This document shows, piece by piece, positions 4,668 to 39,898 of a stretch of DNA of 64,000 nt (position 1 is its first letter; the number at the start of each line of letters is the position of its first letter). This stretch comes from a virus (lineage: Duplodnaviria > Heunggongvirae > Uroviricota > Caudoviricetes): IMG/VR virus record IMGVR_UViG_3300021440_000001; one strand, written 5' to 3'. Below the pieces are notes generated by a model. The model was not told where the DNA came from, did no database searches, and saw nothing but the letters and a program-made list of their open reading frames with translations. A program made the position numbers and the translations under genes.

Positions 4668-5366
4668 ATGGACTGCATCACATACACCCGCGTATCGACC
4701 CGTGAACAAGGCGACAGTCGCAATGGACTAGAGGCGCAGACCGCCAGACTAGAACAGTTCGCATCCTCTAGCGGGGTGAATATCCTTGCTACCTATGAAG
4801 AGGTAGCTAGCGGGGCTAAGGGCGTGGACGGCAGGCCCGTCCTAGCGGCTGCACTGGCCCATGCTAAGCGGTCTAAGGCCGTCCTGCTGGTGGCGAAGCT
4901 AGACCGGCTAAGCCGCTCAGTGGAGTTCATAGCGGGCCTAATGAACCGGCAAGTACGCTTTGCCAGTGCAGAGGATGGCTTACACTGTGAGCCGTTTATG
5001 CTGCACCTAAAAGCGATGCTTGCCGAGCAAGAACGGCGAATGGTTAGTGAGCGCACTAAGGCGGCGCTGCAGGCTAAGAAAGCACGCGGTGAACCCCTCG
5101 GAGTACACACGCACAAGACACCCCTAGATACTAGCGCTAGGGCTGGCCTAGCGTCCGCTGCTGCTGTGGCTGCTGTGGCCGATCAGTTCGCGCTGCGGCT
5201 GGCTAGCGTGGTGTTACCACTGCGACGCACTGGGATGACGACAGCACAAATAGCTACAACCCTGAACACACAAGGTGTGTATACTGCGAGGGGCGGGCAG
5301 TGGCACGGGTCAACCGTGAACAATATCCTGAAAAGACTGACACAAATGGGGCAAATTGTAGGATAA
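4668..5366 (+). CDS. small serine recombinase (resolvase/invertase family) with C-terminal HTH
   Basis: N-terminal YTRVSTREQ (catalytic Ser), LVAKLDRLSRS, ...ERTKAAL motifs. Confidence 0.8.
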   Translation: MDCITYTRVSTREQGDSRNGLEAQTARLEQFASSSGVNILATYEEVASGAKGVDGRPVLAAALAHAKRSKAVLLVAKLDRLSRSVEFIAGLMNRQVRFASAEDGLHCEPFMLHLKAMLAEQERRMVSERTKAALQAKKARGEPLGVHTHKTPLDTSARAGLASAAAVAAVADQFALRLASVVLPLRRTGMTTAQIATTLNTQGVYTARGGQWHGSTVNNILKRLTQMGQIVG

Positions 5367-8805: not shown

Positions 8806-9078
8806 TTAAAACATCGTGAAAGTGTCCGGCTGTTTTCCGTCACGCGCTTGAGCGTATGACACGCGGCGCGATGCGCCGGCAGCTTTCAAGATTTCATTGA
8901 TGTGGCTTGCCGTTGTTGTGGAGTAGAAACCACAGAACGAGAATTCGATTTGTCCGGTTTCCGTGTGGCGGGCGATGGTGCTGCCGTGCAGCTTATATGC
9001 CGTGCCGTCAGTCTTTGCATTGTGGCATGCGCCGGGCTTGTGGGCGAGGAACGCCCGGGCGAGTTCTGTCTTGTTCAT
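8806..9078 (-). CDS. hypothetical early protein (90 aa)
   Basis: ATG ORF with promoter 9117-9145. Confidence 0.55.
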   Translation of the reverse strand: MNKTELARAFLAHKPGACHNAKTDGTAYKLHGSTIARHTETGQIEFSFCGFYSTTTASHINEILKAAGASRRVSYAQARDGKQPDTFTMF

Positions 9079-9116
9079 GGATTGCTTTCGTTAGCGGGGT
9101 TGTGATTCAGTGCCTG

Positions 9117-9145
9117 AATTTTGAGGCTTTCAAAAAACCCTGTCA
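9117..9145 (-). promoter_or_regulatory. sigma70-like promoter TTGACA-N17-CAAAAT
   Basis: minus strand, after hairpin 9159-9174. Confidence 0.5.
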
Positions 9146-9158
9146 AGGGCTTTTTTGA

Positions 9159-9174
9159 AAACCCCTTTCGGGGT
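9159..9174 (-). terminator. terminator-like hairpin AACCCCTTTCGGGGTT
   Basis: GAAA-loop hairpin followed by TTTCAAAAAAG on the minus strand. Confidence 0.4.
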
Positions 9175-9180
9175 TGTGGT

Positions 9181-9471
9181 TTATGCGTAGTACTTGCCGA
9201 CGATCACGGATTCTGCGTAAGCATCCACAAACTTGACAACCACGCTAGAAAAATAAGAATACGATGCGTACCCGTGCCAGCCTTTCAGATCGCCGGCTTC
9301 GTCTTGAACTCGCATGAATTCTGCGAGGTCATATACGCTTTCACGATAGCGGAAAAATACGGCGCTGTTCAGTTCTTCAGGACTGTAGTGGTCGAATTCT
9401 GCACGCTCACGCTTTGTAAGGTCGAATCCGTTAACAGTAAATCGCGGGACATTGTTCGTGACAATTTTCAT
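9181..9471 (-). CDS. hypothetical early protein (96 aa; ORF-track start 9585 lies upstream of the promoter)
   Basis: ATG at 9471 after conserved leader; promoter 9511-9539. Confidence 0.5.
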   Translation of the reverse strand: MKIVTNNVPRFTVNGFDLTKRERAEFDHYSPEELNSAVFFRYRESVYDLAEFMRVQDEAGDLKGWHGYASYSYFSSVVVKFVDAYAESVIVGKYYA

Positions 9472-9510
9472 AACTGGCTTTCGTTTGCGTTTCAGGTTTT
9501 GATGCTTCGC

Positions 9511-9539
9511 ATTGTGCAGGGGCTTTTTGATCTTGTCAA
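9511..9539 (-). promoter_or_regulatory. sigma70-like promoter TTGACA-N17-CACAAT
   Basis: minus strand. Confidence 0.55.
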
Positions 9540-9638
9540 GCCCCTGCTGTTTGCATGGTTGTTCGTGGTCAAACGCGATGAACATTACTTGACATGCGCG
9601 TTTGATTTATAGTTGTAACAATTCGATTTTCTGTTGAC

Positions 9639-9668
9639 TTCCTGCGGCGCAGGGGTCAGAATACGCTC
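9639..9668 (+). promoter_or_regulatory. plus-strand sigma70-like promoter TTGACT-N17-CAGAAT pointing into the iteron array
   Basis: divergent from the cassette promoters. Confidence 0.4.
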
Positions 9669-9753
9669 ATTCTGAAATCGACCGAAGGGCATGCCACGCC
9701 CGAAACATTTATATGCAGAAAATGAAAGTCAGCAAACACTAACGTAAGAGGAA

Positions 9754-9892
9754 GCTTATATACTGAAACGCCTATATTCTAAGTAGCTTATATAAGTGTT
9801 CGCTTATATATTGAATGGCTTATATAAGCCGCCGCTTATATAAGAATCCGCTTATATAAGCCAGCGGTTATATTCGCCAGGGCTTATATACG
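9754..9892. repeat. array of 9 copies of the 10-bp palindrome (G)CTTATATAAG with exact 16-bp periodicity
   Basis: copies start at 9754, 9770 (degenerate), 9786, 9802, 9818, 9834, 9850, 9866, 9882. Confidence 0.85.
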
Positions 9893-9900
9893 AGGTGCTG

Positions 9901-9956
9901 CCCTGGGGAGGGAGGGAGGTTCCATTAATAGGGAAAACTGCATTTTTATTTTCCCC
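9901..9956. repeat. G-tract CCCTGGGGAGGGAGGGAGG followed by hairpin GGGAAAACTGCATTTTTATTTTCCCC
   Basis: four G-runs; the motif GAAAACTGCATTTTTA also occurs at 5490 and 5705. Confidence 0.5.
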
Positions 9957-10226
9957 AGAAAACTTCGGCCAGAATTTCAAACGGTAGCCGAGACTGAATC
10001 ACTGTAGAATTCCACTTCAGAGTGAGGCCCGCCTGTGCGCGGGCTTATTGTATTTGCGAGTTTGTTTAAGAACAGCCAATGTTCTTGCGCGCCTGAAAGT
10101 TTCATGGCAACTTCCGCGCTATATAGGAGAAGTTGCCTCAAATTTTTCCTCGGCTGTGGCTTTCTGAGTAGTTCTGCGCAACAGTATGAAGCCAAGTCGC
10201 CATGCAACTCGGCCGTGCCTCAATCG

Positions 10227-10697
10227 TCAGACAACAGCACGAAACTCTGTGTCAGAGTAGCTTACGCTCTTCAGGAACTTACCTTTCGGAGCGTCTGGCT
10301 GATCGCACGAACTCTTCAGAACCATCGTCGGAAACTGACCTTCCGTGTATGTTTCGGTAACGCCGCGTAGCCAGTGGAACGCACGAGTATTTTCGAGGTC
10401 TTCCGGGCTCTTGATGAAGCGAGTCATAACGCCGTCAACGACATCCTTCATATCGTTGTCGCCATCGATGCCCATTAAGTGTTGTGCGCCCATGGCGAAC
10501 ACCTGAATATCACACAATGCGTCTCGCGTCTTAATCTTGCTCTTTTCTTCAAGAGCTTCCAAAAGTTCGTTGTACTCGTCCAAGATGTTCTTGCACTGAG
10601 ACTTCAGTCGATCCCAGTCAACAGCGTCGTAGTTTCCACGACTATTGCCGAACGCTGTGTTCATGGCGGAGACAGACTGGAAGGAGGTATTTGACAT
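10227..10697 (-). CDS. hypothetical early protein (156 aa; start MSNTSFQ with AAAGGA SD)
   Basis: first ATG of the track ORF (10748) lacks an SD; the second has one. Confidence 0.55.
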   Translation of the reverse strand: MSNTSFQSVSAMNTAFGNSRGNYDAVDWDRLKSQCKNILDEYNELLEALEEKSKIKTRDALCDIQVFAMGAQHLMGIDGDNDMKDVVDGVMTRFIKSPEDLENTRAFHWLRGVTETYTEGQFPTMVLKSSCDQPDAPKGKFLKSVSYSDTEFRAVV

Positions 10698-10949
10698 TAG
10701 TGTCCTTTCGTTTTTACAGTTGGGGTAAATCATACCCAGTTTACCCAAGGTTTAAGTATACCTAACTAAGAGTCGCAGGAGGACATGTAGCGGAGATGCC
10801 ACAAATCCGGGATCGACCTTGGAAATCCTCGAAGTGTTTCCAAAAAGTCTGAAGTGTAGGCAAAATGCTGCTAGTTATCACATAACTTAGGAGTTTGTTC
10901 GTAAAACACCCATAGCTCTCCTAATGTTAGAGCAGCTTTGGAACCTCAA

Positions 10950-11102
10950 TTAGAGTTCATTGCCGGCCATGTACATACCAAGTTCGTCGGCACTATCTGC
11001 GCCGTCAATAGGCAGAGTCAACATCCAACCTGTGAAGAACTTCGCATTGAACACCTCCTCTACCAAATCCGGCGCTCCATTAACAATGCGTTGCAAATCC
11101 AT
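10950..11102 (-). CDS. hypothetical small protein (about 50 aa)
   Basis: minus-strand ATG with GAAAGGAAT SD; preferred over overlapping plus ORF 10938..11264. Confidence 0.35.
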   Translation of the reverse strand: MDLQRIVNGAPDLVEEVFNAKFFTGWMLTLPIDGADSADELGMYMAGNEL

Positions 11103-11260
11103 GAGATTCCTTTCAAATGTTTGACCACTACTGTCTTCATGCCAGCAATGGTTGCTTTACCGATCAATGTTGTCTTGATAACAGATTGTGCTTCACTTTG
11201 GCATCTTCGTCAAGAGATTTTTGACACCAATGTAGGTGTGCCTAAAAAGCAACACAACTA

Positions 11261-11289
11261 TTGACAAAGTTCTCGGACTGTGCTATATA
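11261..11289 (+). promoter_or_regulatory. sigma70-like promoter TTGACA-N17-TATATA firing into the (TA)n tract
   Basis: consensus -35 and near-consensus -10. Confidence 0.5.
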
Positions 11290-11330
11290 TATATATATAT
11301 TATATATTATATATATTATATATCTTGCCT
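11281..11330. repeat. (TA)n / TATATAT low-complexity tract (about 50 bp)
   Basis: direct inspection. Confidence 0.9.
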
Positions 11331-11661
11331 AAGTATTGTCTAAGTAGCTAAAGCTATTCGTCTACTACGTAGACTCATGCTTTAGCTCATGGCCGTACCG
11401 GCGAGCGAGTGGCGGACAAGCCGCACGCCGGAAACCTCAGTCGTTGGCGCCTAGGGCGCTGGTTAGTGCGAATACTGGAACAACGCTTTGGGCTGCTTGC
11501 ACCGTCGGTGCCAACAACCCTAGAACGCTCTAAAAGAGCCATAGAGCGCTTTAAACAGCCCAAGCTATGCCATGGTAGCCATGTGGTACCAACCAGGGCT
11601 TGTAGCCCGTTTAAACGGCTCTGAATACTGCCGTTCTTGTGCAAATGGGCGCCCTAGGCGC

Positions 11662-11722: not shown

Positions 11723-12703
11723 ATGACAGCTTCCCAGCTCAAGCCTGAAATACGCCCCCAGCTAGCCTGTGACTTTGAACAGGACAAGCTCAAGTTTCCC
11801 GTAATCGTGTCCCCGAAGATCGACGGTGTACGTGGCATCAATCTTGACGGGAACTTGACTGGACGCTCTCTGAAGGCTTTCAAAAATGGCTTCGTGACGC
11901 GCCGATTTTCAGGTCCGCAATTCATGGGCTTTGATGGAGAACTGGCGCTTGGTAACTGGACATCTGCGACCCTATGCAGCGACACAACGGGCTTCGTGAC
12001 TCGCAAGTCTCCAAAGCCCGGCAAACCGACGGAAAGCGAAGAGCTTGTCTGGTATATCTTCGACTACTTGGCCGACGAGGTGATTGGCCTGCCATATGCC
12101 GAACGCATTGCAGCGGCGCAGGCCAAGGTAGGGCAAATGCAAGAGTTCCCAGCCAGCATCTCGGTTGTACCATACAAACTGGCACACTCCACTGAGGAGC
12201 TTCTTGCTTTTGAGCAATTGTGCCTGGACGACGGCTTTGAGGGCGTAATCATCCGCGACCCCAATGGCAAGCACAAATCCGGGCGTGCCACTGTGAAGGG
12301 CGGGAGCTACCTGCGAATCAAGCGGTTCATCGACTTTGAGTTCACTATCGACGGTTTTGATGAGGCTCAGGAGAATTTAAACGAGGCGAAGGTTAATGAG
12401 CTTGGATACACCGAGCGCAGCAGCCACAAAGAAAACAAAATTGGCAAGGGTATGGTGGGCTGCATTCACGGCACGCTACTCGAAGATGTAGTGTTCGAGG
12501 GCAAAGTTCTCAACGGCATGGGGAAAGGCACACCTGTTGACGTATCTCCAGGGGCTTTGACACATGGCGAGCGCATTGCAATTTTTAACGACCCGACAGG
12601 ATTTATCGGCGCAATCGGGAAGGGAAAGATGTTCCCGAAGGGCCATAAAGACAAGCCAAGGTTCCCGCAATTCCAAACTGTTCGGGCCAAGGAGGATATG
12701 TGA
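11723..12703 (+). CDS. ATP-dependent DNA ligase (T7 gp1.3-like)
   Basis: adenylation motif KIDGVRG (KxDG), ...GFEGVIIRD..., size 326 aa. Confidence 0.85.
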   Translation: MTASQLKPEIRPQLACDFEQDKLKFPVIVSPKIDGVRGINLDGNLTGRSLKAFKNGFVTRRFSGPQFMGFDGELALGNWTSATLCSDTTGFVTRKSPKPGKPTESEELVWYIFDYLADEVIGLPYAERIAAAQAKVGQMQEFPASISVVPYKLAHSTEELLAFEQLCLDDGFEGVIIRDPNGKHKSGRATVKGGSYLRIKRFIDFEFTIDGFDEAQENLNEAKVNELGYTERSSHKENKIGKGMVGCIHGTLLEDVVFEGKVLNGMGKGTPVDVSPGALTHGERIAIFNDPTGFIGAIGKGKMFPKGHKDKPRFPQFQTVRAKEDM

Positions 12704-16726: not shown

Positions 16727-18505
16727 ATGACGACACCAGCAGAGAAATACGGGATTGACACGAGCTATGCCCATAAAACAGCATGCCCGCGATGCCGACG
16801 TAACGGCCGCGATAACGCTGGTAACAATATGCATGTATATGGCGCCGGTAACGGCGCCTTTTGCTGGTCTTGCAATTTCACTATCCCTTCAGATGAGCAC
16901 ATGGCTAAGATGGGGTGGGATGCCGAAGAGGAAGAGGATCAAGAAGTAATGACCAGAGAAAAAATCACAGACGAACAGAACGCTGAAATCAAGAGCTACA
17001 CCGGGACGAAGGGCCACGGCTACCGTGGAATCCGGGACGAAACCAACAAGTATTTCGGAGTTCGCTACGAGTACGACGCCGAAACTGGCGAGCCATGCAA
17101 ACAGTATTTCCCGACCACAATAGACGGCCAGCTAGCTGGATATCGCACTCGCGTATTCCCTAAAGACTTTTCTAATCCGATTGGGCAGGTCGGCAAGGAA
17201 TGCGATATGATCGGCGAGTTCCGCTTCAAGAACTCGAAGCGCACAGTGATTATCGTAGGGGGTGAAACCAAGCTCCTGAACACGTACCAGATGCTCAAGG
17301 ACGACCTCGAACGTCGAGGGAAGTCTGAATTTGAACCACCTGCTGTCGTTTGCTCCACGCTCGGCGAGAGCGGCGCATACAAGCAGGTGCAAAGTCGCTA
17401 CGAATTCTTCAACCAGTTTGAAAAGATCATCGTCTGCATGGATGCCGACAAAGCTGGCGAAGAGGCTGCTGAGAAGATAGCAAAAGTCCTACCAAAAGGT
17501 CGAGCCTATATAATGTCTATGCGCTTCAAAGACGCTGATGACTACGTTAAGGCTGGAAAAGAGAGGGACTTCATTCAGGACTTTTGGAATGCAAAGCAGC
17601 ATGTACCAGCCGGGATTGTCGGTAGTGGCGACCTTGGTAAACGCCTGCGGGATGAGGTGAGTTCGGAGAAAATCCCCTTCCCGCCGTTTATGAAGGAGCT
17701 AAACGAACTGACTGCGGGAGGCATCTCACTCGGAAAGATCGTTAACTTGGCATCTGGGTCAGGGACCGGTAAGACGACATGGGTTGATACGATGATTTAT
17801 CATTGGATTTTCAACAGCCCGCACAAGATCGGGGTAGTGTCGATGGAATTGAATGCTGGGCAGTATGGGTTATCAATGCTATCTAGGCACATTGGCAAGA
17901 AGATCAATAATATCCAATCAAGAGAGGAGCAGCAACGCTTCCTGGACTCGCAGTGGGTAAAAGACAAAGAGCGTGAGTTGTTCTTCAATGAAGATGGTTC
18001 CCATCGTTGGCACCTCGTTGACGACAGGGATGGCTCTGTAGACGATATAAAACGGCTGATAGAGGAACTCGTCATTGGAATGGATGTAAAAGTCATCGTT
18101 ATTGATGTTCTGTCAGACGTACTAGACGGGTTATCGATCGAAGAACAGGCGCTATTCATGAAATGGGAGAAAGGCATGGTAAAGAGTCACAGTGTTACGT
18201 TCTTCAACGTGAGTCACATCAGAAAAGCAGGGGCTGGGGCGACAAGTGCCAGTAGGGGTGGCATGCCAGACGAGGAATCCATGATCGGCAGCTCTACTAT
18301 TTTCAAGTCAGCCGCATTGAACATTCTTCTGCAACGTGATAAGATGGCCGAAGATGAAATAGCTCGCAACACTACCAGTGTGTACCTGTCCAAGAACCGG
18401 GACAACGGTAGGACTGGCCCGTGCGGAGAGTTTCTGTACGATAATGACTCGCACCAGTTGATGCACAAGGACGACTGGCTTAGTAAGAATACTGCTGAGT
18501 ATTGA
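16727..18505 (+). CDS. bifunctional DNA primase-helicase (T7 gp4-like)
   Basis: N-terminal Zn finger CPRCRR...CWSC, TOPRIM region, Walker A GSGTGKTT and DnaB-type helicase motifs. Confidence 0.9.
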   Translation: MTTPAEKYGIDTSYAHKTACPRCRRNGRDNAGNNMHVYGAGNGAFCWSCNFTIPSDEHMAKMGWDAEEEEDQEVMTREKITDEQNAEIKSYTGTKGHGYRGIRDETNKYFGVRYEYDAETGEPCKQYFPTTIDGQLAGYRTRVFPKDFSNPIGQVGKECDMIGEFRFKNSKRTVIIVGGETKLLNTYQMLKDDLERRGKSEFEPPAVVCSTLGESGAYKQVQSRYEFFNQFEKIIVCMDADKAGEEAAEKIAKVLPKGRAYIMSMRFKDADDYVKAGKERDFIQDFWNAKQHVPAGIVGSGDLGKRLRDEVSSEKIPFPPFMKELNELTAGGISLGKIVNLASGSGTGKTTWVDTMIYHWIFNSPHKIGVVSMELNAGQYGLSMLSRHIGKKINNIQSREEQQRFLDSQWVKDKERELFFNEDGSHRWHLVDDRDGSVDDIKRLIEELVIGMDVKVIVIDVLSDVLDGLSIEEQALFMKWEKGMVKSHSVTFFNVSHIRKAGAGATSASRGGMPDEESMIGSSTIFKSAALNILLQRDKMAEDEIARNTTSVYLSKNRDNGRTGPCGEFLYDNDSHQLMHKDDWLSKNTAEY

Positions 18506-22247: not shown

Positions 22248-22400
22248 GGAAGCGCCATAACTGCATCAAGGGCGTTGTGCTCAGCTTGGCACAAAAGCTG
22301 TGGAACGAGCGGACCAAGACCACTAGCCCTGTGCTTGCAACGCACGACACGGATGCACCGATTGTACGGTGTACTTTCTACGTTCAAGAAAAGGAGAAGG

Positions 22401-24004
22401 ATGAGAGGCGTATTTGACATCGAAGCCAACGCACTTCTTGACCACACTACAATCGACTACTTGGCTAGCCCATTCAAGCTCAAGCCTACGTTCATGGTTT
22501 GGTGCTTGGTTGTTCAAGACATCGACACTGGAGCTGTGTACAGGTTTGTAGGTGACGAGGTTCGGACTGAATTTCCCCGCCTGCTGGCAAAGATGACGAC
22601 CATCATCGGCCACAACATCATAGACTATGACTTGCTGGTGCTAAAGCTCTGGCTCGGAATAGACTATGAAATCGGCGAGCAGTGCTACATCGACGGCAGA
22701 CCTGTTGAAATTATCGACACACTGGTTTTGTCCAAAGTGTTGAACCCAGACCGATACGGCGGACACTCTCTTGACGAGTGGGGTAAGCGCCTAGGACTCG
22801 ACAAGATCGACTGGCGTGCAAAAGCAATTGAGCTTGGGCTTATCCAGTACAACTCGCCAAAGGGTGCAGAGTTTGCCCAGTATCACCCAGAAATGCTTGT
22901 GTACAACGAGCGTGACGTTGCAGTTAACGCTAAACTCTATTTCAACCTTGTGGATGAAATGGGCAGTTGGAACTGGCAAGGCCCGTTTGTGCTTGAGCAG
23001 ATGACACGGGACATTATCACCCGACAGTCGCACAGAGGGTTCTGGTTCAACGCTGAACTCGCAGAGGCAAATGTCCGAGAACTTGACGCCAAGATGGAAG
23101 AGATTAGGCTGTTGGTCGAGCCGCTACTGCCGCCGAAGCCGATGGGGTTGACGAAGCTGAAAGGGTACATTCCTCCGAAGATTCAGTTCAAGAAGAATGG
23201 CGAGCCTTCTGCCGTTGTTTTGAAGTGGGTGGAGCGCCACGGGGGCTCGATTTGGGAGGAATCAGGGCACTGGTGGTACAAGGTCTACGACAAGCAGGGT
23301 AAGATGCCAATGCCAGCCGACGAGGCTGTTGTGACGCACGAGCCAGCAACTGTCAAGGACACTACCCACATCAAGGGGTGGCTTGTTGAACTCGGGTGGC
23401 GTCCTACGCAATACAAGGAGCGTGATATAACCTGTGACAGCAAGAAGAAAAAGCTCACACCAGATAAGTTTGCCGACACTGTTGAACGCTACGTAGAGCA
23501 AACGCTGTCTAGTCCATTCAAGCGTGACCGTTGCAACGAACTTGACGTGTCTGCTTCGAGACTCAGAGACAAGTTGCTTAAGCACGACCTGAAGAGGCCG
23601 CTGAAGGTCTACACCAATCCCACCATTACCGTGGGTATGGAAAAAGAAATCGACCCTGCGCTTCTTGAGCTTGCAGACCAGTTCCCGCATGCGAAGCTTG
23701 TGTCAGAGTACCTGACGTATGCTCACAGGCGTAACAGCATCCTGGGCGGAGGGTTTGATCCTGACGACCTAGACGATGATGACGAGTTCGCTGGTAAGGG
23801 TTTTATGGCCGCTGGGCGCATTGCGGAAGACGGCCGTATCCAGACCCCTGCGGACTCCTGCGGAGCTGGCACAAGCCGTTTTAAGCACCGTCTCGTGGCT
23901 AATGTTCCGCGTGTGACCAGTTTGTATGGCAGGAACATGCGGGCTCTCTTTGGAGTTGACAAGGATGACGGATTTCTGCAACTGGGTTACGACTTTGATT
24001 CGTT
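22401..24004 (+). CDS. DNA polymerase I family (T7 gp5-like), exon 1: 3'-5' exonuclease plus N-terminal polymerase region ending in motif A
   Basis: Exo I VFDIEANAL, YNERDV; ends ...LQLGYDFDSL (motif A DxSxxE.R interrupted); AAGGAGAAGG RBS. Confidence 0.8.
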
Positions 24005-24814
24005 AATGACTGGCGAATGTAAAACCTGTTGAATTGCTGGGACACCCTAACGTACAATGGCGAGGGCAATCAGCAGCGAAGACGTGAGCTACCTCTTATT
24101 TGAAAGGAGGTAGGTATGGAAAGAAAGACTGTGCGTTGGTCGCCGTCTTATGATGTTTACGAGGATGGCAGGGTTTGGAGCAGGCACACAGGGAGGTTAT
24201 TGAAGCCCTTCTTGTCCACACAATCTGACGAGTACTTGTCAGTGAAGCTGTGCGAAGACTGCGAAGAACGGACAATCAGTGTGCATAGGCTTGTAGCCGA
24301 GCACTTTGTCCCTAATCCTGACAACCTAGGAACTGTCAATCATAAAGACGGCAACAAACAGAACAACCATCGTAGTAACCTAGAGTGGATGACTCAAGGC
24401 GATAACAAGCGGCATGCGTTCCAAACCGGAGTGTCTGTTGCTTGGTGGCAAGGAGATACACACTCTAGAAGCACTTTCACCAACGAAGAAGTGCATGAGA
24501 TTTGCAGCCTGTTCCAAAGCGGTGTGAAGCCGCTGGACTTGGCGAAGTCCACGACGCTCTTGTACCAGAAGCTGTTTAGAATCTGGAACAGAGATAACTG
24601 GAAGTCGATTTCTAAAGACTATAGTTGGTAGCTCACGTAACGTTCAACGACTATCGAAACCACGCAGCAATGCGGAAGGGAGTAGAGTAGGAAGCAAGCC
24701 TATGGCTTCCGAAGTGGCAGGGGACGAAAGTCCATGATATAGTCTGAACACGCAGGAGACTGCGTGCGGAGGTTAAATCCTCGGGTGGTTGTTGCGAAGC
24801 CACTGAACAAATTG
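24005..24814 (+). other. group I intron in the DNA polymerase gene (carries an HNH ORF)
   Basis: exon ends in U, with P1 pairing ATTCGU/GCGAAU; intron ends in G; conserved core GACTATCGAAA...GAGTAGAGTAGGA...GATGATATAGTCYGA shared with the nrdA introns; spliced product gives DFDSL|EAKIEAH matching T7 DASGLELRCLAH. Confidence 0.7.
24116..24631 (+). CDS. intron-encoded HNH homing endonuclease (NUMOD-like N-terminus + HNH_3)
   Basis: VNHKDGNKQNNHRSNLEW; GAAAGGAGGTAGGT RBS inside the intron; paralog at 37487. Confidence 0.75.
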   Translation: MERKTVRWSPSYDVYEDGRVWSRHTGRLLKPFLSTQSDEYLSVKLCEDCEERTISVHRLVAEHFVPNPDNLGTVNHKDGNKQNNHRSNLEWMTQGDNKRHAFQTGVSVAWWQGDTHSRSTFTNEEVHEICSLFQSGVKPLDLAKSTTLLYQKLFRIWNRDNWKSISKDYSW

Positions 24815-25614
24815 TGGAAGCGAAGATCGAAGCCCACTACGTCTACCGCTATGCGGGAGGTCCGGAGTATGGGGTGAGTCTGACGGCTGAAAAACCGAAT
24901 GACTGCCATAGCGTTCTTGCGCGTAAGATCACGGGAATACTCGGACGTGAGTTTCCTCGGTCAACTGCGAAGAACGTCAAGTATGGGTGCAGCTACAATG
25001 CTCAACCAACGCGTGTGGCTAAGACGGTGGGCTGCGATCTGGATACAGGTCAGATCATCTTCGATGCGTTCTGGGAGCAGGCTAGCCCGCTGAAAGAACT
25101 CAAGGAAAAGATGCAGAAATACTGGGAAGGTCCGGGCCAGAAGAAGTTCCTCATGGGCATCGACAACCGAAAGTTGCCGATCCGCGCAAAAGGGAACGTC
25201 ATCAACACGGCATTCCAGTCTGCTGGCGTCATCTGTGCTAAGCGGGCGATGGTTATCCACGAAAAAATGTTGAAAGACGAGGGTTTGTGGGTTGACTTTT
25301 TCCGCGATGACTGGAAGAATAAGGACTTCTGCCAACAACTGATCGCCTACCATGATGAGGCGCAACTAGAGGTTCGCCGTAGCATGGTGACGTGGAAGAA
25401 GTTCAGTAGCGAAGCTGAGTGCAAGGCGTTCAAGAGCGACGACGGAAAGGTGTGGAGCGACCCTGTTCACAATGACAAGGGCTGGTTCCGTGGCTACTGT
25501 CGTGCTGGCGAGCTTGCAACAATCGCTGTAAGAGAGGCTGGACAACACTACAAACTTAACGTAGAATTGTCGGCTGGATACATGCTAGGCACCGACTGGG
25601 CTAGCTGCCACTAA
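24815..25614 (+). CDS. DNA polymerase exon 2 (motifs B and C, C-terminus)
   Basis: R..AKNVKYGCSYN (motif B), LIAYHDEAQLE (motif C HDE), C-terminal ...GTDWASCH matches T7 ...GPNWAICH. Confidence 0.8.
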
Positions 25615-26677: not shown

Positions 26678-27469
26678 ATGCTAAAAGCTACGAGTATGGC
26701 GGGATGGGACATCCCTCTGAAGGTGTGGAAGTTCCCGTGTGGCGAAGTCGGCGTAAAGATTGAAAGCGGGTTCGCTAATGGTGAAGTGGAAGTGGCAGTG
26801 ACGCTGATGTGGGAGGGCAATGACGACCTGATTGCGCTTGGGCAGTTAGTCGATGCGCTGCGGCACGCGGGTGTTGAACGTATCTCACTGAACATTCCAT
26901 ACTTCCCCTATTCACGCCAAGACCGCCGCTGCAATTCCGGAGAGGGTCACGCCCTTAAAATGGTTGCCGCCTACATCAACAGTCTGAATTTCTCCACCGT
27001 CTACACAATGGACGCTCACAGCTATGTGCTTGAAGCTGTCGTCAACAACCTGCGGGTGACTGAACAAGAAGATTGTGCATTTATGCTGCCGAGCTTTGAT
27101 GTCTTTGTGGCCCCTGACGCAGGCGCCAGCAAGAAGATTTTCAAGCTGACTTCCACCTTTGAGGGTGCGGAAGTTCTTGTTGCTGACAAGAAGCGTGACG
27201 CTATTGGAAGGATAATTGAAACCCGCGTCAGCGGTGGAGAGTCCATTACCGGCAAGTCAGTGTGTGTTGTTGATGACTTATGCGACGGCGGCGCAACATT
27301 CGTTGAGCTTGGCAAGGTGCTTAAAAAGTACGAACCGGCCTCTCTCAACTTGTACGTGACACATGGGTTTTTCACGAAGGGTGTTGAAATTCTGACACCG
27401 TTCTACGAGACAATCTACGTCTCAAACTTGATGAACAACGCGGCAAAGCCGCATGTAAAGGAGATTTGA
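26678..27469 (+). CDS. ribose-phosphate pyrophosphokinase-like protein (Prs / candidate ADPR-PP synthetase Adps)
   Basis: PRPP-binding loop VVDDLCDGGATF, ...YSRQDRR...; 263 aa, shorter than cellular Prs. Confidence 0.7.
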   Translation: MLKATSMAGWDIPLKVWKFPCGEVGVKIESGFANGEVEVAVTLMWEGNDDLIALGQLVDALRHAGVERISLNIPYFPYSRQDRRCNSGEGHALKMVAAYINSLNFSTVYTMDAHSYVLEAVVNNLRVTEQEDCAFMLPSFDVFVAPDAGASKKIFKLTSTFEGAEVLVADKKRDAIGRIIETRVSGGESITGKSVCVVDDLCDGGATFVELGKVLKKYEPASLNLYVTHGFFTKGVEILTPFYETIYVSNLMNNAAKPHVKEI

Positions 27470-27470
27470 T

Positions 27471-29066
27471 TTGAAGAGCTTTCCACTGACCCAAGCCGAC
27501 TTCTACAAGCTGTCGCACAAAAAGTTCATGGTTGATGGCGTGACCAAGATTTACGCCAACTTCACGGCGCGTTCTGGCAAGTATGCAAAGTGGGCAGATG
27601 ACAGAAAGCGAGTAGTGTTTGCTGGCCTTCAGCACTTCATCAAAGACTTCTTGATTGAAGAGTGGAATAGGGAGTTCTTCAAGAAGCCAAAAGCGCAGGT
27701 GATTGCCAAATTCAAGCGACGCGTTGAAACGTCTCTTGGCGTTGGCTCAGTGAGCATGGCCCACTTTGAAGCTCTGCATGACCTTGGCTACCTGCCACTG
27801 AAGATCAAGGCTCTGCCTGAAGGCTCGAAGGTTCCTTTCAAGGTTCCTCTACTGACCGTTGTCAACACTGACGACGATTTTGCATGGCTTGTCACGTACA
27901 TCGAAACTGCCCTTTCGACGGAGCTGTGGGCTACTACCACTGCTGCGACCACTGCGTACCAGTTTCTGACTCTGTGCAACAGTTTTGCAGACCAAACAGT
28001 AGGCAACCGCAATCATGTCATGTTCCAGTGTCATGACTTCTCTGCGCGTGGTGTCATCGGTCGCAATGGTGGGGCTCTAACGGGTCTTGGACATTTGATG
28101 TCGTTCAATGGCACAGATACTATCGCGGCAATCGACCTTGTTGAAGACTATTACAACGTGGATGCCAGCAAGTATTTCATTGCTGCATCGGTTCCTGCCA
28201 GTGAGCACAGCGTAACGTCGCTCGGAAGCAGCGTTCTCGGAGAGTTCGGTACTATCAAGAGCTGGATAACCGAGGCCTACCCGACAGGTATTGTATCAGT
28301 TGTGTCGGATACCTACGATTATTGGCGTGTTCTCACCAAGTACCTACCACTGATGAAGGACGATATCAAGGCACGTAAGCCGAACGAGCTTGGACTTGCA
28401 AAGGTTGTTGTGCGCCCTGACAGCGGCGAGCCTGCACGAGTCATTGCTGGATATCGACCCGACGAGTTTTACTCTGAAGTGAAAAACATTCAGCGAGACG
28501 GCTGGACTGAGTGTGTAAGCGTGTTCACTTGCAAGAGCACTGGAAAGCAGTTGACTGAAGATGAAATCAAGGGTAGTATTGAGATTCTGTGGGAGACATT
28601 TGGTGGCACGACTAACAAGTTTGGCTACCGTGAACTCGACCCGTGCATCGGTTTGATCTACGGCGACAGCATCACGCTGGAGCGGGCTGACGATATATTC
28701 CGCCGATTGCAGCAGCGAGGGTTTGCAAGTAGCAACGTCGTGTTTGGCGTAGGCTCTTACACATACCAGATGGTCAGCCGCGACACGCTTGGCATGGCAG
28801 TTAAAGCCACTGCTGCTGTTGTTGACGGCGAGCTGAAGGCACTATTCAAAAACCCGGCGACTGACGACGGGACGAAGAAGTCTGCACGCGGCCTCATGCG
28901 CGTCGAGCTGATCGACGGTGAGTACGTGATGTTTGACCGCCAAACCGAGGCTCAGGAGGCTTCTGGTGAGCTTCGAACTGTGTTTGAAGACGGCGTGCTG
29001 TTGATTGACGAAACATTTGAGGTCATCCGGGCACGGGTCCAAGACATCGTGCTTGAAAAGGCGTAA
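27471..29066 (+). CDS. nicotinamide phosphoribosyltransferase-like protein (NAMPT/NadV family; candidate Namat)
   Basis: 531 aa; type II PRTase-like with GTDT..., ...YGDSIT... regions; TTG start overlapping the upstream stop. Confidence 0.7.
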   Translation: MKSFPLTQADFYKLSHKKFMVDGVTKIYANFTARSGKYAKWADDRKRVVFAGLQHFIKDFLIEEWNREFFKKPKAQVIAKFKRRVETSLGVGSVSMAHFEALHDLGYLPLKIKALPEGSKVPFKVPLLTVVNTDDDFAWLVTYIETALSTELWATTTAATTAYQFLTLCNSFADQTVGNRNHVMFQCHDFSARGVIGRNGGALTGLGHLMSFNGTDTIAAIDLVEDYYNVDASKYFIAASVPASEHSVTSLGSSVLGEFGTIKSWITEAYPTGIVSVVSDTYDYWRVLTKYLPLMKDDIKARKPNELGLAKVVVRPDSGEPARVIAGYRPDEFYSEVKNIQRDGWTECVSVFTCKSTGKQLTEDEIKGSIEILWETFGGTTNKFGYRELDPCIGLIYGDSITLERADDIFRRLQQRGFASSNVVFGVGSYTYQMVSRDTLGMAVKATAAVVDGELKALFKNPATDDGTKKSARGLMRVELIDGEYVMFDRQTEAQEASGELRTVFEDGVLLIDETFEVIRARVQDIVLEKA

Positions 29067-36561: not shown

Positions 36562-37362
36562 ATGCTTAGAGCAATTCGTAAACGAAGTGGGGAAGTTGTC
36601 TGGTTTGATGCAAACAAATTAAATCGCTGGGGAGAATGGGCCGCTGGGATCGGAGTAGACTGGAGCGGAGTCGCCCTTGAAGCTACCCGCAAGTGTTTTG
36701 ACGGCTGCACAACTGATGATCTTCACAAGGCATTGATTGCTGCTTGCGTTGACCGAGAGACTACCGCACACCTGAAAATGGCTGGGCGCCTGTATATCGG
36801 CGCAATCTACAAGCAAGCCTTCGGCGATTGGCGTGAAATTCCGAGTGTGCAGGATATGTACCGCAAGATGTCCAAACTCGGCCTATGGGCAGAAATGGAC
36901 TACGCGGAAGAAGAGCTGAGCTACTGCAACGAGTTCATCAACCACGAACTCGACATGCAGGCCACGCTGACGGAAACCAAGCAGATCATCGACAAGTACG
37001 CTATCTCAGACCGGGTTGACAAGAAGGTCTATGAAACTCCGCAGTTTGTGTATATGCGGATGGCCCTCGGCAACATGGAGAAGATGCCGAAAGATCGACG
37101 TATGCAGGACGTGAAGAAGCTGTACACCTTCCTGTCACAGAAGAAGATCAATCCGCCTACGCCGTTCAGCCTAAACCTTGGGACTGAGAAGAAGCAGTAC
37201 GCTTCGTGTTGCGTCTTTACAACAGAGGACTCCGCTTCGAGCCTTGCTGCTGCTGACCACATCGCCTACATGATGACCTGCGCATCGGCTGGCATTGGTG
37301 GGCACATCAAGACCCGTAGCAAGGGCGATAAGGTCCGCCAGGGCGCTATTCAGCACATGGGT
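36562..37362 (+). CDS. nrdA: class I ribonucleotide reductase large subunit NrdA, exon 1 (3' boundary approximate, 37362-37370)
   Basis: ATP-cone-like N-terminus; ...SAGIGGHIKTRSKGDKVRQGAIQHMG aligns with E. coli GGGIGINAGRIRALGSPIRGGEAFHTG. Confidence 0.75.
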
Positions 37363-38181
37363 AAATATTTGCCCCTGTAAGCCGGAAGGTTTACAGAAAA
37401 CCTATTGAATTGCTGGAAGGCTAAGGCGCAAGCTATGCTAATCAGCAGGGAAGGCTTCAAGTACGACCTTTACGAAAGGAGGTTGTATGCGAAAATACTG
37501 GACGACAGAAGAGATAGAGCTACTGACAGAGTTTGCCTCGTGTGGCAGGTCATTTATTGAACTTGCTACAATGCTTGGGAGAACACTGCAAAGCGTGCAG
37601 CATAAAGCTAGCAAGCTGTCAATTACGTTTGTACGAAAACCTGCCAAAACACTGTACGGTGAAGTGTGGGCGAAGTCTTACGTAGATGATGTTCTAGTCT
37701 CAAATCATGGAAGATTCAAGCGGGCCAGCACCAACTCTCTCCTAAGCGGAACTGTTCTTCAAGACGGCTACGTTCAAGTAGAGGTTTCCAGAAGTGGAGG
37801 CGCGGTCAAATGCTATGCACACCGGCTTGTTGCAGAGGCGTTCGTGGAGAACCCAGACAACAAGCCAGAGGTCAACCATAAGAATAGGAACAAAGCTGAC
37901 AACTCGGCAGAAAACCTAGAATGGGTGACAAGAAGTGAGAACATGATTCACGCCCATGCTACGGGATTTATCCGTAGGTAGGCTATTGTCGTACTTGAAG
38001 CAACCTTCAGAGACTATCGAAAGCACGCGAAAGCGGAAGCGAGTAGAGTAGGAGAGCGAAGCCGATGCGCCTCCGAAGTGGTAGGCACCTGTTTACAGGT
38101 GATGATATAGTCCGATCCTACGCGAAAGCGTATGGCAGCACGTTATGGTGCGGGGCACACTTGCAAAGTGTCCGAACTTTG
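37363..38181 (+). other. group I intron 1 of nrdA with HNH ORF (boundaries approximate to within 10 nt)
   Basis: 5' region AAAACCTATTGAATTGCTGG and 3' core GACTATCGAAAGCACGCGAAAGCGGAAGCGAGTAGAGTAGGA...GATGATATAGTCCGA nearly identical to the pol intron. Confidence 0.65.
37487..37981 (+). CDS. intron-encoded HNH homing endonuclease (paralog of 24116..24631)
   Basis: VNHKNRNKADNSAENLEW; GAAAGGAGGTTGT RBS. Confidence 0.75.
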   Translation: MRKYWTTEEIELLTEFASCGRSFIELATMLGRTLQSVQHKASKLSITFVRKPAKTLYGEVWAKSYVDDVLVSNHGRFKRASTNSLLSGTVLQDGYVQVEVSRSGGAVKCYAHRLVAEAFVENPDNKPEVNHKNRNKADNSAENLEWVTRSENMIHAHATGFIRR

Positions 38182-38658
38182 AAACTTCCATACTACAAGG
38201 TCCAGCAAGCGGCTGTATCGGCCAATTTGCAGGCTTCCCGTGGTGGTGCTAACACGATGCACTTCAACGTCATGGACCCGGAGATTTTCGACCTGCTGAA
38301 GTTGAAGAACGTCCAGACCATTGCCGACAAGCGTATCAAGGACATTGACTACTCTGTAGGGTACAATGACGAGTTCGCCCGACGTGTAGCTGCGAACGAG
38401 TCTTGGATGCTGGTCAGTTACGGTGACGCCCCAGAGTTGTACGAGGCCATGTATGACGGTGACTCGAAGAAGTTTGTCAAGCTCTACTCTGAGGTAGAGG
38501 TAGACGAGAGCATTCAGAAGCAGTTCGTGAGCGCAAGAAAAATTGCCATCACGTTCTTGACTGAAGCTGTTGAAACTGGCAGACTATACGAGCACAACAC
38601 AAGCGAGCTGAATCGTCACACGCCTTTCAAGGACACTATCTACTCTAGCAATTTGTGT
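38182..38658 (+). CDS. nrdA: nrdA exon 2
   Basis: KLPYYKVQQAAVSANLQASRGGANTMHF aligns with E. coli CIPFYKHFQTAVKSCSQGGVRGGAATLFY; ends ...YSSNLC. Confidence 0.7.
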
Positions 38659-38905
38659 TAAATCTAGCACCCTTGCACGGTGACGTGCATTGAACAACCC
38701 ATTGAACTCAGGGGAAACGTAGGAAACGTAATCCTGATCGAAGCCTATTTATAGGAACGAGCAACGACTATCCCGAAAGGGAGTACACCCAAGCGGGTGG
38801 AAGCGGTGGGCATCTCTAAAGGAGATGATGATATAGTCTGGTCTGCATAGGGATATGCAGCAGCCGAAAGGCGGGAAGTGATTAGCGACCACTTCTGAAC
38901 TTACG
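38659..38905 (+). other. ORF-less group I intron 2 of nrdA (247 nt)
   Basis: exon ends in U, intron ends in G; contains GACTATCCCGAAAGGGAGTA...GGAGATGATGATATAGTCTGG core; splicing yields NLC|QEIGLPT, colinear with E. coli NLCLEIALPT. Confidence 0.7.
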
Positions 38906-39898
38906 CAAGAAATCGGCCTTCCGACTCTGGGCTACAACTCAGTGTATGACTTGTACCGGCCTGTGCCGGCTGCGTTCCAAGTTATCGAAGACATGGGCGA
39001 AATTGGCCTGTGCTCTCTTGCAGCTATTGCCGCAGGGCTAGTCAGTGACGAAGAGTATGAAGAGGTTGCCTATTATGCTTCGTTGATGATTGATAACGTC
39101 ATCGACATCATGGAATACCCGTTCCCGCAGTTGAAAGTCACAGCTCAGGCTCGCCGCAGCATTGGAGTAGGCATCACAAACCTCGCCTTTGCGATGGCCA
39201 AGGAAGGGCTGAAGTACAGTACGCTGGAAGGTAAGCAGTACATTTTCAGGCTTGCAGAGCGCCACAGCTATTACCTGCACAAGGCCTCGCTGCGGCTTGC
39301 CAAAGAGCGCGGCATCTGCGAATGGGCTGACCGAACGAAGTATTCTGAAGGCTGGCTTCCCATTGACACGGCGAACAAGGAAATCCAGCGTCTGATTGGA
39401 CAACCTCTGCTGTGTGACTGGGAAGCACTCCGCTCTGAAATGAAGGCTATTGGCGGACTCCGCTTCTCGGTACACGAAGCGCATATGCCATGCGAGTCCA
39501 GCAGCGTTGCTGGTGGGCACACGAACGGCCTGTACCCGATCCGTGCATACAAGGTTGTCAAGACATCTGGAACAAACAAAAACTTGTTCATTGCTCCAGA
39601 ACTTGATACACTTGCATCGAGCTATGAGCTTGCGTGGGAGATTCCTACGAACGACATGATCGACGTGTATGCTATTGTCCAGTGCTTCACTGGTCAGGCT
39701 ATCTCTGCCGACCTGTACATCAAGTACGACAAGGAAGGCAAACGAGAGCTGTCGGCGAAGACGCTGTTGCAAGAGTGGCTGCGACGTGTTAAACTTGGCA
39801 TGAAGACGAAATACTACACTAATTCTTCCACAGGTGTAGAGTTGGACGCTTCTCCGAAAGAAGAAGAAGCCCCGGTGTGTGACAGTTGCTCGCTTTGA
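38906..39898 (+). CDS. nrdA: nrdA exon 3 (C-terminal CxxC tail ...EEAPVCDSCSL)
   Basis: EIGLCSL..., PIDT..., HEAHMPCESSSVAGGHTNGLYP (essential Tyr-Tyr region), C-terminal redox-shuttle Cys pair. Confidence 0.8.
   Translation, partial: QEIGLPTLGYNSVYDLYRPVPAAFQVIEDMGEIGLCSLAAIAAGLVSDEEYEEVAYYASLMIDNVIDIMEYPFPQLKVTAQARRSIGVGITNLAFAMAKEGLKYSTLEGKQYIFRLAERHSYYLHKASLRLAKERGICEWADRTKYSEGWLPIDTANKEIQRLIGQPLLCDWEALRSEMKAIGGLRFSVHEAHMPCESSSVAGGHTNGLYPIRAYKVVKTSGTNKNLFIAPELDTLASSYELAWEIPTNDMIDVYAIVQCFTGQAISADLYIKYDKEGKRELSAKTLLQEWLRRVKLGMKTKYYTNSSTGVELDASPKEEEAPVCDSCSL

Follow-up and report, generated by a model that had tools for sequence, protein, structure and literature searches.

Short sites repeated in non-coding DNA are found in several known systems. 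In the iteron origins (P1 oriR, F, pSC101 and RK2 oriV, lambda ori, and P4 ori and crr) such sites lie in tandem and in the same orientation with G+C- and A+T-rich flanks, and P1 oriR, F, pSC101 and RK2 oriV have the classical layout in which DnaA boxes adjoin the iterons. Clusters of short non-coding repeats are also present at terminase sites, such as the lambda cosB R sites, SPP1 pacL, the P1 pac hexamers and the T7 short-repeat arrays. The R-loop origins (the T7 primary origin, T4 oriF and oriG, ColE1 and the mitochondrial LSP-CSB II region) have an upstream promoter and an easily melted region. T7-type systems start at transcribed, easily melted sites, the T7 primary origin being located upstream of ligase gene 1.3, and in human mitochondria a T7-type replisome is primed from an R-loop at CSB II, which reads G5-6AG7-8. 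Many copies of one short intergenic site also occur in multi-site operators, including the mycobacteriophage L5 stoperators, ParR-parC and the omega heptads.

The window analysed here is a stretch of 64,000 nucleotides from a virus of the Caudoviricetes (IMG/VR record IMGVR_UViG_3300021440_000001), and a non-coding array within it shares features with all of these systems. It has the tandem same-orientation sites and the G+C- and A+T-rich flanks of the iteron origins, but its 16-bp period does not approach a whole number of helical turns (~19-23 bp), the window yielded no initiator of the Rep, O or alpha type, and this copy has no DnaA boxes. Two such arrays a few kb apart in Limnohabitans phage DC31 recall P4 ori and crr. 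It is a non-coding cluster of short repeats as at terminase sites, but is ~20 kb from the terminase gene of its own genome. As in the R-loop origins there is an upstream promoter-like site and an easily melted region; the replisome is T7-type, as in the T7 and mitochondrial examples, and a G4-6AG3-4 run on the non-template strand resembles CSB II. R-loop origins, however, have no phased array of protein sites, and the promoter in the window is weak. The many copies of one short intergenic site are shared with the multi-site operators, but no ArsR, ParR or omega-type gene adjoins the array, the ArsR-like pairs of Actinobacteria have two copies as against nine here, and the L5 stoperators are dispersed whereas this array is tandem. 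By its period, and by the lack of a cognate initiator, an adjacent terS, a partition gene and a plasmid match, the array is therefore set apart from each known family.

Repeat region 3 of the T5 LTR also has DnaA boxes, nine direct repeats and a G-rich stretch, but differs in sequence (the T5 DRD repeat is GTGCAAATCCGACA). The T5 terminal repeat is an analogy, taken from work on T5, DnaA and origins, and not the same element (Davison, bioRxiv 10.1101/866236). No description of the motif or module was found in the searchable literature, in which matches to the motif string were irrelevant. Judged from sequence, the element appears to be a phased, putatively protein-binding repeat array in phage control regions that resembles iteron or terminase-site arrays. 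Replication origins and packaging signals are hard to predict by sequence for most uncultured phages; a rigidly phased motif that many unrelated phages have in common would be a landmark by which control regions could be annotated, and would serve as bait for the protein that reads it.

Structure and setting of the array

The phage genome is about 81 kb (~80.8 kb) and contig ERZ27251996:k141_727048 (80,767 bp) contains the window, where window coordinates are 30389 minus the position in that contig. The tail, head, portal and TerL genes are on the minus strand and are followed in gene order by tRNA genes; a plus-strand block encodes PhoH, a ClpP-like protease, an RNA ligase and a serine recombinase. 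Small genes read leftward form a block from 10748 down to ~6065, a divergent promoter region occupies 10.75-11.7 kb, and a rightward block carries genes for replication and nucleotide metabolism (ligase, ThyX, primase-helicase, polymerase, exonuclease, NrdAB, and NAMPT with PRPP synthetase). In this rightward block the ATP-dependent ligase is located at 11723, the T7 gp4-like primase-helicase (Pfam Toprim_2 and DnaB_C) at 16727-18505 on the plus strand, and the family-A polymerase is split. An identical ligase gene with the same neighbours was present in 12 contigs. The primase-helicase shares 49% identity with that of Pseudomonas phage phiPsa374 and 47% with that of DC31, and judged from these values the nearest cultured relatives are distant; megablast of positions 9000-11500 found no close relative among isolate phages.

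The array is 1.8 kb upstream of the ligase gene, and the main divergent promoter region is ~1 kb away from it. It occupies a gap of ~640-755 bp that contains no genes, within the leftward small-gene block. The gap is bounded by a gene of 96/134 aa (phrog_1845) at 9181-9585 and by a MazG-like gene at 10227-10748. The TerL gene (429 aa) is ~20 kb away, beyond the tRNA genes and the plus-strand block. GC skew tracks gene orientation and is therefore uninformative on the origin.

A first-pass annotation of this DNA had described nine palindromes at a strict 16-bp spacing. The periodicity was confirmed by sequence reading, TRF (which gave periods of 16 and 32) and motif counts, with nine 16-bp units in perfect register at 9754-9897 on the plus strand. 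The units start at 9754 (GCTTATATACTGAAAC), 9770 (GCCTATATTCTAAGTA), 9786 (GCTTATATAAGTGTTC), 9802 (GCTTATATATTGAATG), 9818 (GCTTATATAAGCCGCC), 9834 (GCTTATATAAGAATCC), 9850 (GCTTATATAAGCCAGC), 9866 (GGTTATATTCGCCAGG) and 9882 (GCTTATATACGAGGTG). All nine open with the half-site G(C/G)(T/C)TATAT (GCTTATAT) in a single orientation, the period corresponds to ~1.5 helical turns, and the spacers of 5-6 nt between units show no conservation. The exact palindrome CTTATATAAG is present only in units 3, 5, 6 and 7 (palindrome starts 9787, 9819, 9835 and 9851), in which the half-site is extended to (G)CTTATATAAG(C), and the other five of the nine have the left half only (GCTTATATAC, GCCTATATTC, GCTTATATAT, GGTTATATTC and again GCTTATATAC). 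With four exact palindromes among nine units, the array is a head-to-tail half-site repeat; it is real, but had been over-described. Allowing up to one mismatch, CTTATATAAG was matched seven times against 0.93 expected, a count that was reached in none of 100 shuffles, and GCTTATATA 19 times against 6.8 expected. The claim that no coding sequence explains the array was borne out, as every unit contains stop codons and no gene is called at 9586-10226 on identical metagenome contigs. The array sequence was unchanged in the four contigs aligned over this region, which include independent metagenome contigs.

A G-run, GGGGAGGGAGGGAGG (9905-9919), comes seven bp past the last unit; it is on the plus strand and shares the polarity of the half-sites, and its position downstream and on the non-template strand is as expected of an R-loop origin. 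The G-tract had been credited with quadruplex potential, but it consists of three runs of at least three G plus one GG, so that a canonical three-tetrad quadruplex is not available. The A+T-rich segment that follows, TTCCATTAATAGGGAAAACTGCATTTTTATTTTCCCC (9920-9960, from sequence reading), is a candidate unwinding region. Upstream, a weak sigma-70-like promoter match on the plus strand (9634-9662; TTGACT at 9634-9639, a 17-nt spacer and CAGAAT at 9657-9662) points into the array, as had been noted, but fits the consensus at only 9 of 12 positions. An inward promoter-like site accompanies 25 arrays of the wider family and an outward one 27, and with the two equally common the promoter in the window is tentative.

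A plus-strand hairpin with a T tail, resembling an intrinsic terminator (AGGCCCGC-CTGTGC-GCGGGCTT followed by ATTGTATTTG; 10025-10055), had been missed in the earlier annotation. It would close a predicted plus-strand transcript of ~385 nt that contains the array. Folding of the RNA from 9668-10060 gave z = -2.25, and an Rfam scan at the gathering threshold had no match at 9600-10100, the only matches in the window being a tRNA and a group I intron. The tract previously given as (TA)25 is indeed TA-rich but is interrupted, extending for ~41 bp at 11284-11324 (TRF: 21.5 copies, 85% matches, 14% indels); it holds the -10 hexamer of a leftward promoter match (11/12), and contigs of the window phage break there. 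No DnaA boxes were found within ~1.5 kb of the array.

Related arrays in other phages

The search of other phage genomes that the first-pass annotation had proposed was carried out. Two palindromes 16 bp apart were found in 20 stretches in IMG/VR by an exact-pattern scan, and a three-unit pattern in 38 stretches in metagenomes. Using blastn with the array, one isolate was recovered, Limnohabitans phage DC31, in which the array is unannotated, and a consensus-array search of 50,697 phage records found DC31 alone. With identical copies removed, viral and metagenome contigs and DC31 together gave ~58 non-identical arrays of 3-11 units with a 16-bp period, a count for which the loci and the detection rule both demanded 16-bp spacing. 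Fairer support for the period is that the units beyond those demanded by the search stay in register. The recurrence of core and period in unrelated lineages upholds the earlier proposal that the array consists of phased sites bound by a sequence-specific protein.

The family unit profile is G0.66 C0.90 T0.95 T A T A T A0.92 A0.79 G0.62, then five uninformative positions, and the 5-nt spacers vary freely across the arrays. Position 2 (C) carries 1.41 bits against 0.45 bits for its mirror G at position 11, and a truncated GCTTATG often closes arrays. As the left flank is more informative than its mirror and the ends are truncated, a directional iteron-like site fits better than strict two-fold symmetry, and the earlier argument from a palindrome to a dimeric protein is less secure, the invariant part being a directional half-site. 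The invariant core with variable spacers, the half-site-only units in register and the rigid period point to recognition of the DNA by a protein and not to RNA structure.

The two-unit pattern was found 22 times in bacterial genomes (596 Gb), nearly always as isolated pairs. In Actinobacteria (Streptomyces and relatives) pairs of the form CTTATATAAG-N6-CTTATATAAG are located just upstream of genes that are ArsR-like by sequence. A synthetic array consensus had no blastn match in 72,556 PLSDB plasmid records, and with bacterial pairs so rare the array is apparently phage-restricted. Among the matches listed in a variable-gap scan, copies of the same 10-mer in other phages favour distances of 10, 23, 30, 32/33 and 37/38 bp, suggesting that the core is shared more widely and that the phasing is lineage-specific.

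The G-run is a recurrent partner of the motif. Either GGGGAGGG or GGGAGGGG was found within 250 bp of a motif cluster at 13 of 167 motif-bearing loci (~2.8 expected), which include the window (same polarity), group A (L017) and the 'c18' lineages. By this co-occurrence, the array and the adjoining GGGGAGGG run form a two-part non-coding module recurring in many phages. Four or more independent lineages (DC31-like, L010, L086 and L124) have at least three consensus DnaA boxes no further than 250 bp from the motif.

Gene context and candidate binding proteins

Group C comprises the DC31-like phages, which are syntenic with the window phage, sharing the order of a plus-strand block with PhoH and ClpP, leftward small genes and a rightward replication block. 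On these comparisons they are the array-bearing lineage most similar to it in gene order. Their array I abuts DnaA boxes, with 4-6 consensus boxes within 250 bp at seven loci (~0.1 expected) and variant boxes at the remaining loci, and a further repeat set is found beside it. A second array is located 3 kb from array I at the distal end of the same operon. In DC31 the arrays are away from the main divergent strand-switch. Two DC31-like contigs of 4.2 kb span only the stretch from array I to array II and have one end point in common.

Group A is a 37-kb circular assembly in which two inverted arrays flank a gene for a small basic protein; they have a P4-alpha/D5-like primase-helicase gene on one side and, on the other, a TerS-like gene that is followed by TerL. 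Group B has consensus sigma-70 promoters that fire straight into the arrays, forming compact units of promoter, motif(s) and terminator of ~90-110 nt. Arrays begin within ~10 nt of the start site of promoters that match the consensus at 12 of 12 positions (L004, L012, L057 and L074), further copies of this promoter are followed by single sites, and a multi-copy helix-turn-helix family accompanies the arrays at 14 loci. A subset of group B has terS (phrog_3802) and terL ~1 kb downstream.

At 25 of 25 loci belonging to one TerL clade (Terminase_6N/6C, ~420-450 aa), the motif cluster is 0.6-3.1 kb upstream of TerL and immediately precedes the first gene of the packaging operon, which is TerS-like. 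Four TerS-like families are found by the motif, one of them phrog_3802, terminase small subunit; they are mutually not detectably homologous, and a common TerS specificity is therefore not evident. The TerL of the window phage is only remotely similar to this clade, with a best blastp E value of ~1e-6 over 58 residues and at most 24% identity over ~240-260 residues at E values of 1e-5 or weaker. The 'c18' lineages have the order repeats, GGGGGGAGGGG, TTAGGGACAG box, consensus promoter and terS. In one of them, L124, consensus DnaA boxes are positioned between the repeats and the G-run (three by strict pattern and more by eye), and 6 of the 11 'c18' loci are less than 260 bp from a contig end. 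Contig ends in general were rejected as evidence for termini, as several are assembly breaks at other repeats: the L001 and L011 contigs share a 59-bp overlap within a tandem repeat in coding sequence, and group B contigs end in repeated promoters.

No protein family was common to the array neighbours across lineages in an all-vs-all blastp of ORFs or in hhalign comparisons between neighbour families. When HMMs of 106 neighbour families were searched against the whole window phage and DC31, only HNH endonucleases were matched in the window phage. The adjacent 96/134-aa gene was rejected as the binder, since the contig with its 84%-identical homologue has no array upstream and the same is true of contigs with 48% homologues. 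TRF and sequence reading showed no tandem array upstream of the primase-helicase gene of phiPsa374 or over the first 9 kb of PaP1, and on this survey the array is sporadic even among relatives of the window phage. No Rep/O-type initiator was matched among the neighbouring and replication-module proteins that were scanned (ten with Pfam, the remainder with PHROGs); nor were there matches to partition families (ParA/ParM/TubZ and ParB/ParR-type) in the scanned subset of window ORFs (Pfam or PHROGs), or ArsR-like matches in the scanned ORFs adjacent to the array. To our knowledge, the array fits none of the consensuses for IHF, Fis, Lrp, NrdR, LexA, Fur, CRP, the T4 MotA box or the T4 late promoter.

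Possible roles of the array

The best explanation, though a tentative one, is that this is an iteron-type protein-binding array marking the start of replication in this phage. Cooperative loading of a sequence-specific protein onto the nine GCTTATAT half-sites, at the fixed 16-bp (~1.5-turn) phasing, would distort the easily melted TATATA cores. Transcription from the flanking promoter would then leave a G-rich RNA on the C-rich template past the array as an R-loop, and the opened DNA would load the T7-type primase-helicase and DNA polymerase. If the array is an origin, the primase-helicase at 16727-18505 would be the trans-acting partner that is loaded there. This explanation is ranked first because the DC31-like phages, closest in gene order, have an array beside an oriC-like cluster of DnaA boxes; because the order of array, G-rich run and A+T-rich segment resembles that of iteron origins; because the replisome is T7-type and has no recognisable initiator among the proteins scanned; because the G-run resembles the R-loop anchor of mitochondrial CSB II; and because the array is positioned between the leftward block and the replication genes, like the T7 primary origin. 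The iteron origin was among the functions listed in the first-pass annotation, and it gains comparative support. It is also favoured by the three further lineages (L010, L086 and L124) in which the motif is paired with DnaA boxes, by the G-run as a conserved partner, by the promoter-like site and terminator-like hairpin that bracket the array on the plus strand, and by the clear promoter-motif-terminator units of group B. Against it, the array in the window has no DnaA boxes nearby, neither its surroundings nor the replication module gave a Rep/O-type initiator, the period is not an integral number of turns as in classical iterons, and the window promoter is a 9/12 match in a family without an orientation bias. 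The sporadic distribution among relatives is unexpected for a fixed, essential origin, the DC31 arrays are not at the main divergent strand-switch, and the invariable position upstream of terS-terL in one TerL clade fits packaging at least equally well.

Packaging is for that reason the strongest rival to the origin, although on balance it is unlikely. The array and G-run would here be the terminase recognition region (a pac site or the boundary of a direct terminal repeat) at which packaging of the concatemer starts. A pac or terminase small-subunit site had also been listed previously, and gains comparative support from the terS-terL position in that clade (25/25 loci, directly before the TerS-like gene). 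The window has exactly the composite of repeats plus G-run, with the same polarity, that precedes the promoter and terS in the 'c18' lineages, where contig ends are often close by; the T5 terminal repeat has DnaA boxes, repeats and a G-rich stretch at its inner end, and the paired 4.2-kb DC31-like contigs run from one array to the other with a shared end point. The TerL gene of the window phage is nevertheless ~20 kb off and its product only remotely similar to that clade, the motif-adjacent TerS-like families have no detectable homology to each other, three assemblies run uninterrupted through the array, and several of the contig ends near arrays are explained by other repeats. A role in transcription control is just as doubtful. 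Under this explanation the array would be a multi-copy operator at which a regulator blocks, times or insulates the distal part of the leftward block (9585 to ~6065), as a roadblock or 'stoperator'. It is in keeping with the intergenic and often promoter-proximal location of arrays and single sites, with the group B arrays that begin ~10 nt from the start sites of 12/12 promoters and their helix-turn-helix family (14 loci), with the DC31 operon that is bracketed by two arrays and has single sites in other gaps, and with the fact that, in DC31 as in the window, the array lies close upstream of the distal leftward operon. The two-copy, 16-bp-spaced pairs upstream of ArsR-like genes in Actinobacteria point the same way. 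A run of nine to eleven tandem sites is long for an operator, however, no regulator family is common to the lineages, the array-neighbour families lack a homologue in the window phage, and the associations with DnaA boxes, the G-run and terS are left without an explanation.

The remaining explanations are less likely than the origin, packaging or transcription control. Titration or recruitment of a host nucleoid protein or other DNA-binding protein, or a partition site, is improbable. A host factor would explain why the motif is found in phages without a common neighbouring gene, many array-bearing contigs are from freshwater samples and DC31 infects Limnohabitans, and TpA-rich cores are favoured by H-NS-like proteins; but bacterial genomes show essentially only two-copy pairs. 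The plasmid-like centromere suggested earlier is disfavoured, as the consensus had no match in the 72,556 plasmids and no partition family was matched among the scanned window ORFs. The least probable is an element acting as RNA, with the array in a short non-coding transcript whose A/U-rich hairpins serve as a protein sponge, a seed-pairing regulator or an RNase target. The plus strand does carry a promoter-like site, the array and a terminator-like hairpin, several group B units are compact enough for this (~90-110 nt), the spacers are complementary about a central spacer in some arrays (L057 and L012), and the fold z-score is -2.25. It is the sequence that is conserved, however, and not pairing alone, and half-site-only units are unable to pair; the exact 16-nt period and the neighbouring DnaA boxes point to recognition of DNA, promoter orientation is unbiased across the family, and the Rfam gathering-threshold scan gave no family at the array.

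Returning to the replication origin, the binding of a protein, R-loop formation and origin function are inferred. The phased (G/T)CTTATATAAG sites, the GGGGAGGG run and, in some phages, DnaA boxes make up a cis-element family that looks phage-specific and was not found described. It is possible, if short of probable, that this family is a new T7-type (Twinkle-like) initiation module composed of an iteron filament and a CSB II-like R-loop anchor, or a shared control of the start of replication and packaging; there is a real chance that the full module is a new type of initiation or packaging control element. Should the G-run prove to be an R-loop anchor for a T7-type replisome, it would be a bacterial-virus counterpart of mitochondrial CSB II, with a mechanism that could become testable in a simpler system. 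One further lineage (c22), with adjacent CTTATATAAGCTTATATAAG, was set aside: there, a 36-bp perfect palindrome is followed by a T-run, and this is terminator-like and probably unrelated in function.

Palindromic and paired sequences in other genomes

A perfect 36-bp palindrome, GCTTAAGGCTTATATAAGCTTATATAAGCCTTAAGC, followed by a T-run, is located directly upstream of a TerS-like (terminase small subunit) gene in the viral contigs L102, L105, L114, L118 and L128 and their relatives. Together, the palindrome and the T-run look like a terminator hairpin composed of the 10-mer also found in the array. Pairs of the form CCTTATATAAG-N6-CTTATATAAGG were found in loci L021-L029 and L038, which belong to the genomes of actinobacteria, among them Streptomyces, Nonomuraea and Glycomyces, and the DNA around them has a G+C content of 67-73%. 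The genes directly downstream resemble, by sequence, either ArsR genes or the usual partner of these, and the pair itself looks like an operator.

Repeats, contig ends and a gene-free stretch

Upstream of the ligase gene, the divergent promoter region contains a perfect 13-bp inverted repeat, GCGCCTAGGGCGC / GCGCCCTAGGCGC (11447-11459 and 11649-11661), with arms 189 bp apart. A leftward promoter match (11/12; TAGACA, 16 nt, TATAAT) has its −10 within an interrupted TA-rich tract at 11284-11342, and two independent metagenome contigs, L196 and L216, end precisely at this tract. Elsewhere, a perfect tandem duplication of 33 bp, comprising two copies of TGAGATTGTCATTGAGAGCCAGGAAGAACTTTA, is present at 2106-2171 within a plus-strand gene block.

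Among metagenome contigs resembling the Limnohabitans phage DC31, L072 and L081 (4.2 kb each, from different strains) cover only array I to array II when compared with L062. They share one end point, at L062 position 2172, which could be the edge of a repeat or a change in coverage, for example that of a terminal repeat.

In the window phage itself, a 1.6-kb stretch without genes (L206 1663-3281) precedes window position 1 by ~6.6-8.3 kb and separates the terminase operon from the divergent gap. It contains tRNA-like T-arm sequences and is probably a tRNA cluster resembling that of DC31.

Split genes, metabolic genes and a recombinase

As a group I intron (38649-38860; Rfam RF00028, 81.8 bits) sits between the two pieces of nrdA, the ribonucleotide reductase large subunit gene (36562-37380 and 38942-39898), this is an intron-split gene. 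At 22275-25614, the family-A DNA polymerase is encoded by two ORFs, 22275-24032 and 24814-25614, with an HNH endonuclease ORF (24116-24631) between them. The latter is one of at least eight HNH endonuclease ORFs dispersed across the window (3747, 12700, 15847, 18595, 24116, 33295, 39946 and 40839).

Two NAD salvage genes lie next to each other, one at 26678-27469 for ribose-phosphate pyrophosphokinase and one at 27471-29066 for nicotinamide phosphoribosyltransferase; this pair is also found in Pseudomonas phage PaP1. A serine recombinase/invertase-type gene with a Resolvase domain is present at 4668-5366, although the remainder of the phage genome seems virulent.
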